Shown: positions 23,362 to 23,681 of the stretch, one piece after another
Numbering within the stretch: position 1 is the first letter of the stretch
Layout: each line of letters opens with the position of its first letter
DNA from: Escherichia coli O127:H6 str. E2348/69
Lineage (GTDB): Bacteria > Pseudomonadota > Gammaproteobacteria > Enterobacterales > Enterobacteriaceae
DNA: 64,000 nt
Assembly (NCBI RefSeq): GCF_000026545.1
Contig: NC_011601.1
Reading direction: 5' to 3' (one strand)
The notes under the pieces: model-generated
Database searches by the model: none
What the model saw: only the letters and a program-made list of their open reading frames with translations
Told to the model about the DNA's origin: nothing
Made by a program: the position numbers and the translations under genes

Positions 23362-23457
23362 ATGCTGGGTAATATGAATGTTTTTATGGCCGTACTGGGA
23401 ATAATTTTATTTTCTGGGTTTCTGGCCGCGTATTTCAGCCACAAATGGGATGACTAA
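23362..23457 (+). CDS. mgtS: small membrane protein MgtS (31 aa)
   Basis: MLGNMNVFMAVLGIILFSGFLAAYFSHKWDD with GGAGG at 23351-23355; below the length cutoff of the ORF track. Confidence 0.8.
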   Translation: MLGNMNVFMAVLGIILFSGFLAAYFSHKWDD

Positions 23458-23484
23458 TGAACGGAGATAATCCCTCACCTAACC

Positions 23485-23524
23485 GGCCCCTTGTTACAGT
23501 TGTGTACAAGGGGCCTGATTTTTA
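23485..23524 (+). terminator. Rho-independent terminator of mgtS
   Basis: ggcccctt / aaggggcc stem followed by tgatttttat. Confidence 0.45.
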
Positions 23525-23532
23525 TGACGGCG

Positions 23533-23643
23533 AAAAAAAACCGCCAGTAAACCGGCGGTGAATGCTTGCATGGATAGATTTGTGTTTTGCTTTTACGCTA
23601 ACAGGCATTTTCCTGCACTGATAACGGATCGTTGACACAGTAG
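23533..23643 (-). ncRNA. mgrR: candidate PhoP-dependent small RNA MgrR
   Basis: minus-strand hairpin accgcc..ggcggt followed by a U8 tract (plus-strand A-run 23533-23540) and a PhoP-box-like direct repeat upstream; position between mgtS and dgcZ fits the known mgrR locus; ends approximate. Confidence 0.45.
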
Positions 23644-23664
23644 CATCAGTTTTCTCAATGAATG

Positions 23665-23681
23665 TTAAACGGAGCTTAAAC
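23665..23681 (-). promoter_or_regulatory. PhoP-box-like direct repeat (GTTTAA-N5-GTTTAA) upstream of the candidate mgrR
   Basis: minus-strand reading GTTTAAGCTCCGTTTAA; overlaps the dgcZ stop codon. Confidence 0.4.

Follow-up and report, generated by a model that had tools for sequence, protein, structure and literature searches.

In Escherichia coli, mgrR and mgtS have been described as convergent genes, both dependent on PhoQ/PhoP, and the activities of mgrR-lacZ and yneM-lacZ fusions fall upon repression of PhoP synthesis. MgrR is a 98-nt PhoP/PhoQ-dependent and Hfq-dependent small RNA (sRNA) that, with Hfq, represses eptB, ygdQ, pitA, and other mRNAs, and its ARN motif and pairing region (U55-A68) have been described (PMC6239178). 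For its part, mgtS forms a PhoQP-dependent operon with mgtT (Wang 2017; Weaver 2019; Vellappan 2024, preprint). MgtT was detected by ribosome profiling and confirmed by chromosomal tagging, and neither deletion nor overexpression of mgtT resulted in a phenotype. Among the PhoP-activated promoter architectures defined by Zwir et al. (2012), architecture I is represented by mgtA, phoP, and slyB, and architecture III, with a single direct PhoP box 21 to 23 nt from the -10 hexamer, by rstA and ompX. The PhoP dependence, the Hfq dependence, and the targets of MgrR are taken here from the literature.

The locus studied here occupies some 320 bp of a 64-kb window (the whole stretch of DNA analyzed, 64,000 nucleotides) and is almost certainly the known PhoQ/PhoP-controlled mgtS-mgtT/mgrR low-Mg2+ locus of E. 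coli. The 551 bp around it were 100% identical to the E. coli E2348/69 (O127:H6) sequence, and the same 551 bp were present at ≥95% identity in 5,407 of the 5,426 complete E. coli genomes. Alignment with K-12 MG1655 was gap-free and showed three single-nucleotide polymorphisms in 461 aligned nucleotides (99.3% identity). The K-12 record annotates mgtS (b4599), mgtT (b4775), mgrR (b4698, ncRNA), and dgcZ (b1535) in this region, and the window coordinates of these four genes were carried over from K-12. A first-pass annotation made from the letters alone had proposed a Mg2+-stress module with convergent mgtS and mgrR, in agreement with the literature, which gives both genes as convergent and PhoQ/PhoP dependent. 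Its identification of the locus was correct, and the five elements that it listed (mgtS, a plus-strand terminator, a minus-strand terminator, a direct repeat, and an overlap with dgcZ) were all found at the positions claimed for them. The biology is ordinary and already known, since mgtS, mgtT, mgrR, the PhoP dependence of the locus, and the position of the PhoP box are already published and annotated. The present analysis established the identities and positions of the elements, their conservation, and their agreement with published 3′-end maps. Orthologous loci were gathered by searching for 19 consecutive nucleotides of the MgrR core, yielding 19 true matches in Escherichia, Salmonella, and Citrobacter; the other 2 of the 21 contig matches, in a Caldithrix metagenome-assembled genome (MAG) (L006) and a Clostridia MAG (L014), were regarded as fortuitous 19-mer matches and excluded.

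The mgtS gene (yneM; 31 amino acids [aa]) extends from 23362 to 23457 on the plus strand, stop codon included, and is annotated in both K-12 and E2348/69. The product of the 31-codon open reading frame (ORF), MLGNMNVFMAVLGIILFSGFLAAYFSHKWDD, matched NCBIfam NF033842 (small_MgtS) at 80.6 bits (cut-off, 35) and Pfam PF22865 at 88.2 bits (cut-off, 27), in both cases over the full length, 1 to 31, so the ORF claimed from the letters was present and is mgtS. The mgtS promoter has a PhoP site of its own, which the first-pass annotation overlooked. It reads AATTCA-GCCTT-CGTTTA (23261 to 23277, plus strand), with a good proximal half-site and a degenerate distal one (AATTCA in E. coli). The orthologous promoters, read in the mgtS sense, carry GTTCA-N6-GTTTA, kept across Citrobacter, Salmonella, and Escherichia. 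A predicted -10 hexamer, TAATAT (23290 to 23295, plus strand), lies 12 nt downstream of the box. We infer from this spacing that the promoter would belong to architecture I, with a direct box whose proximal half-site is 12 nt upstream of the hexamer; it would thus resemble the mgtA, phoP, and slyB promoters and differ from them in its weak distal half-site. PhoP bound at this site would direct transcription of mgtS, whose 31-aa membrane protein increases the levels of MgtA. Just upstream of the promoter, within the last codons of ydeE, there is a terminator-like hairpin (23210 to 23226, plus strand; CGTGGGGGCAGCCCGCG followed by CTTTGTTGAT), which may insulate mgtS from ydeE read-through.

Downstream of mgtS, the proposed plus-strand terminator took the form of a stable hairpin (23485 to 23515; ΔG, -22.6 kcal/mol; z, -3.6) followed by UGAUUUUUA, with a run of five U residues at 23519 to 23523. 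A simple terminator scan did not detect this hairpin, because an inner mismatch makes the loop of the perfect stem longer than 8 nt. Published Term-seq data place a plus-strand 3′ end, in two of three conditions, at K-12 1622804, which corresponds to window position 23520, a position within the U run that precedes the mgtT stop codon by 41 nt. The hairpin and a T-rich tail (T4 to T8) were found in 17 of the 18 loci, with a compensatory change from T-A to C-G at the tenth pair. Since the mapped 3′ end falls in its U run, the hairpin is a working terminator, and only read-through RNA can encode full-length MgtT. The majority of mgtS transcripts end within 23485 to 23523, and the fraction reading through, which can code for MgtT, is antisense to MgrR.

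The second gene of the operon, mgtT (b4775; 34 aa; 23457 to 23561, plus strand), was overlooked by the first-pass annotation, and the hairpin that this had taken for the mgtS terminator lies within the annotated mgtT ORF. The gene is annotated in K-12 and in E2348/69, and its ATG overlaps the mgtS stop codon (TAATG). The protein matched Pfam PF23498 at 96.3 bits (cut-off, 27), and NCBIfam holds no hidden Markov model (HMM) for MgtT. MgtS and MgtT were identical to their K-12 counterparts, with the same TAATG overlap, and the operon thus showed no difference between K-12 and E2348/69. The mgtT ORF crosses the mgtS hairpin and overlaps, in antisense, the last 29 nt of MgrR, that is, its whole terminator hairpin and U8 tail.

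When the orthologous loci were compared, conservation of the MgtT protein was not found beyond the genus. The ORF encodes 34 aa in E. coli and Escherichia albertii and 30 aa in Escherichia whittamii. Among the Citrobacter-type loci, it was 14 aa long in nine and 34 to 66 aa long, with unrelated C termini, in five others, so that over the range of 14 to 66 aa observed outside Escherichia neither the C terminus nor the length of MgtT was kept. The ATG and the first ∼14 codons were conserved, and these coincide with an arm of the conserved mgtS terminator hairpin. An ancient function of mgtT is therefore less likely, given that the conserved N-terminal part is the hairpin arm and the C termini are unrelated.

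On the opposite strand, the candidate mgrR of the first-pass annotation proved to be the annotated gene, in the same place and on the minus strand. K-12 b4698 (1622817 to 1622914, minus strand) mapped without indels to 23533 to 23630 (minus strand), between mgtS and dgcZ. The position, strand, neighbors, terminator, and seed/ARN region were those of K-12 MgrR, and 97 of the 98 nt were identical; the one change, C instead of U at RNA position 4, is of no substance. A search of Rfam gave a match to RF01407 (STnc560, as MgrR is called in Salmonella) at 281.9 bits (E value, 2e-65; gathering threshold, 55), covering the full model (1 to 214) and positions 23451 to 23664 of the minus strand. The 214-nt model starts 34 nt before the K-12 +1, within the untranscribed promoter, and runs ∼80 nt past the U8 terminator of MgrR, taking in the mgtS hairpin and reaching the end of mgtS. 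The match thus exceeds twice the length of the true sRNA and is unsuited for defining MgrR boundaries.

In the fold computed for MgrR (ΔG, -25.9; z, -2.9), a stem-loop at the 5′ end was followed by the A-rich/seed region, which was single stranded, and by the terminator. A core of ∼35 nt was invariant in 18 species of Escherichia, Salmonella, and Citrobacter. The A-rich (ARN)/seed segment, AAGCAAAACACAAATCTATCCATGCAAGCATT, was likewise invariant in the 18 species and unpaired in the minimum free energy (MFE) fold, although 19 nt of this region are invariant by construction, part of it being the search pattern with which the loci were collected. According to the published mechanism, it is through this single-stranded, invariant central region that MgrR, together with Hfq, acts on eptB, ygdQ, pitA, and the other target mRNAs. 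A covariation count was neither needed nor decisive: helix 1 showed one pair with changes on both sides (UA in 7, AU in 5), and the value of 59.7% paired obtained for the terminator helix was an artifact produced by an alignment indel of 1 nt in the loop.

The minus-strand hairpin and U8 tract noticed from the letters were recovered by the terminator scan as a stem-loop at 23559 to 23540 with U8 at 23540 to 23533; the stem has 8 pairs, 6 of them GC, and a loop of 4 nt and is followed by T8. Term-seq 3′ ends of MgrR at K-12 1622824 and 1622819 correspond to window positions 23540 and 23535, 2 to 7 nt inside the annotated 3′ end, and MgrR ends at this 8-bp GC-rich hairpin and its U tract. The loop and 3′ arm of the same terminator (23537 to 23553, minus strand) contain GGTTTA-CTGGC-GGTTTT, with one mismatch to the PhoP box; this resemblance is probably due to chance, the spacing being 6 nt in Citrobacter. 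In Citrobacter amalonaticus (L016), mgrR, the PhoP half-site, and the MgrR terminator were present, and mgtS, mgtT, and the mgtS hairpin were absent beside mgrR, indicating that the convergent mgtS/mgrR pairing is not universal.

The 29-nt overlap between mgtT and MgrR, transcribed from opposite strands, raises the alternative that the two convergent units regulate each other, with mgtS-mgtT read-through RNA pairing with the 3′ end of MgrR (its terminator and the U tail to which Hfq binds) and RNase III cleaving the duplex, so that either RNA would limit the other. Transcripts extending past the mgtS hairpin appear to exist, in view of the detection of MgtT after chromosomal tagging. In addition, a Rho-dependent termination region antisense to dgcZ has been published at K-12 1623270 (plus strand; window position 23986), and an RNase III-dependent site has been published at K-12 1622816 (window position 23532), 1 nt past the annotated 3′ end of MgrR, and attributed by its authors to antisense transcripts. 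Taken together, the Rho-dependent region and the RNase III-dependent site indicate that some plus-strand RNA crosses mgrR. However, the main plus-strand 3′ end lies at the mgtS hairpin, before the overlap, and its Term-seq scores (2.6e3 to 1e4) were some thousandfold lower than those of the MgrR 3′ ends (∼2.4e6 to 5.3e6), so that under the Term-seq conditions the antisense RNA is far scarcer than MgrR. Nor is the overlap ancestral: the two terminators are 16 to 17 nt apart in Escherichia but 48 to 55 nt apart in most Citrobacter loci, where the mgtT-like ORF stops in the hairpin. The lack of a phenotype upon mgtT deletion or overexpression also argues against this alternative, and we consider mutual regulation of the two units rather unlikely.

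The PhoP box of mgrR, AGTTTA-AGCTC-CGTTTA, is located at 23666 to 23682 on the minus strand and corresponds to the repeat GTTTAA-GCTCC-GTTTAA read from 23681 to 23665. It spans -52 to -36 relative to the annotated start of MgrR (+1 at 23630). Its distal half-site also belongs to dgcZ (ydeH; 23676 to 24566, minus strand; annotated in E2348/69 and K-12), which encodes a diguanylate cyclase with GGDEF (155.2 bits) and CZB (31.0 bits) domains, both above the Pfam cut-offs. The gene ends in ...AAC CGA GTT TAA, and the last Val codon (GTT) together with the TAA stop codon (23678 to 23676) constitutes the distal half-site, in keeping with the overlap claimed by the first-pass annotation. Upstream of dgcZ, the dgcZ-dcp spacer (24567 to 25072) is ∼500 bp long here and ∼1,485 bp long in K-12; in the E2348/69 lineage, ydeI and ydeJ are annotated pseudogene fragments at ∼24820 to 24909 (minus strand) and ∼24948 to 25028 (plus strand).

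The junction between dgcZ and the box varied among the loci compared. Only in Escherichia does dgcZ adjoin mgrR, the DNA upstream of the box being unrelated in Citrobacter and Salmonella. In E. albertii (L004, 8745 to 8906), 16 nt separate the dgcZ stop codon from the proximal half-site, stop and box do not overlap, and the separate distal site, TAGTTTTG, resembles those of Citrobacter and Salmonella. In E. coli and E. whittamii this distance is 5 nt, that is, 11 nt less, or one half-site period; this difference places the terminal GTT-TAA of dgcZ at the position of the distal half-site. In the lineage of strain SCPM-O-B-8794, labeled "E. coli" (L010, 9904 to 10065), TAA is replaced by TTA, and DgcZ gains seven residues (LAPFNIH) across the whole box. 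Given that the overlap occurs in only part of Escherichia and is variable there, it is best read, from these sequence comparisons, as a product of genome compaction and not as a designed coupling.

A functional coupling would take one of two forms, either a dgcZ-mgrR cotranscript or a block of dgcZ elongation by PhoP bound at the box. In the first, dgcZ transcription would cross the mgrR promoter and stop at the MgrR terminator, acting as a PhoP-independent source of MgrR or occluding the promoter, and the second would link Mg2+ stress to cyclic di-GMP (c-di-GMP) synthesis. Transcription of dgcZ may read through into mgrR, and the data are consistent with the remark in the first-pass annotation that such read-through and PhoP-driven initiation would use the same DNA: the terminator scan showed no terminator-like site between the dgcZ stop codon (23676) and the MgrR terminator, and published Term-seq data contain no 3′ end at K-12 1622900 to 1622999, which spans the interval from the dgcZ stop codon to the MgrR start, and no 3′ end classified to dgcZ. 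The overlap is, moreover, fixed in E. coli, the 76-bp segment comprising the promoter and the dgcZ end being present at ≥95% identity in 5,414 of the 5,426 complete genomes. Nevertheless, the missing 3′ end may simply reflect low dgcZ expression, and the arrangement is not kept where mgrR is, with other upstream DNA in Citrobacter and Salmonella and a junction that takes three forms within Escherichia (16 nt, 5 nt, and the TTA read-on). In the literature on dgcZ and MgrR, we found no link beyond their adjacency. We therefore consider a functional coupling quite improbable and retain compaction as the preferred interpretation of the overlap.

A broader proposal, to which we likewise give little credence, would join both overlaps into a single three-way node. 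According to it, the E. coli lineage would have lost a spacer of 11 nt, one PhoP half-site period, whereby the terminal GTT-TAA of dgcZ would have come to occupy the place of the distal half-site, giving a perfect PhoP repeat and depriving dgcZ of its own terminator. The MgrR terminator would then also stop dgcZ transcripts, whose 3′ end would consist of MgrR; PhoP bound at the box would impede dgcZ elongation; and RNase III would cleave the duplex formed between MgrR and mgtS-mgtT read-through RNA. If this were true, c-di-GMP synthesis, Mg2+ import, and lipopolysaccharide (LPS) modification would be tied together in cis.

As for the claim that the GTTTAA-N5-GTTTAA repeat is a PhoP box, the core was exact and lies at the published position, since a PhoP motif at -52 to -36 is quoted from Moon and Gottesman (2009) in PMC8313858, which also describes a condition-dependent protein-occupancy peak at this motif; the strict 17-mer consensus, (T/G)GTTTA-N5-(T/G)GTTTA, was matched with two mismatches, both K positions being occupied by other bases (A and C). 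Two-mismatch matches to the strict consensus are common (25 in the window versus 17 expected), so that the motif alone is weak evidence and the context decides. The exact core GTTTA-N6-GTTTA occurred twice in the 64-kb window versus 0.18 times expected, and 2 of 100 shuffles reached two occurrences. The other occurrence, at 107 to 123 (minus strand), is a perfect 17-mer, TGTTTA-GTCGC-TGTTTA, with CATAAT 11 to 12 nt further on, the canonical spacing of architecture I, and is oriented toward a fimA-like fimbrial operon situated, in E2348/69, immediately outside the start of the window; judging from its sequence, it may represent a fimbrial promoter under PhoP control.

The context of the mgrR box was well conserved. 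The proximal GTTTA was invariant in 18 species, as was an ATTG located eight bases downstream of it, and the distal half was degenerate (GTT-like) outside E. coli. An extended -10 element, TG-C-TACTGT (23637 to 23645, minus strand), ends 6 nt before the annotated +1, and its pattern TGnTAnnnT was invariant in the same species. The directly oriented box ends 23 nt before the conserved TACTGT, and from this arrangement we infer a promoter of architecture III, which it resembles in having a single direct box; the 23 Salmonella promoters analyzed by Zwir et al. did not include that of mgrR, which differs in having a distal half-site that is at the same time the end of a coding sequence. An alternative -10, AAAACT (23653 to 23648), situated 11 to 12 nt from the box as in architecture I, would yield an RNA of ∼109 nt. 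It was rejected because the stretch containing it is not conserved (AGAAAACTG versus GGGTTGTCG); the invariant TGnTAnnnT agrees with the annotated +1. The segment at 23655 to 23661 (minus strand) does not provide a good -35 hexamer at a usable distance. A generic sigma-70 scan of 23150 to 23800 gave no promoters, as expected for activator-dependent promoters, and since those activated by PhoP have no -35, the result is uninformative. The notion that the GTTTAA repeat is a chance match arising from the C-terminal codons of dgcZ and plays no part in mgrR transcription, which finds some support in the two K mismatches, the frequency of such matches, and the poor conservation of the distal half, is effectively refuted by an exact core observed ∼10-fold above expectation, by an invariant proximal half-site at a fixed distance from the conserved extended -10, by the agreement with the quoted position of the PhoP motif, and by the PhoP dependence of mgrR established in the literature.

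According to the published mechanism, PhoQ and, in turn, PhoP are activated in low Mg2+, and phosphorylated PhoP switches on two convergent promoters: the one that drives the mgtS-mgtT operon on the plus strand and, on the minus strand, that of mgrR, where PhoP at the direct repeat, two helical turns upstream of the extended -10 TGcTACTGT, gives rise to the 98-nt MgrR. The present check closes the finding of the first-pass annotation and corrects the picture of the locus with regard to the mgtT ORF and the boundaries of Rfam STnc560. For this low-Mg2+ locus, the comparison with its relatives in Escherichia, Salmonella, and Citrobacter suggests that the overlaps with dgcZ and mgtT are recent and variable.
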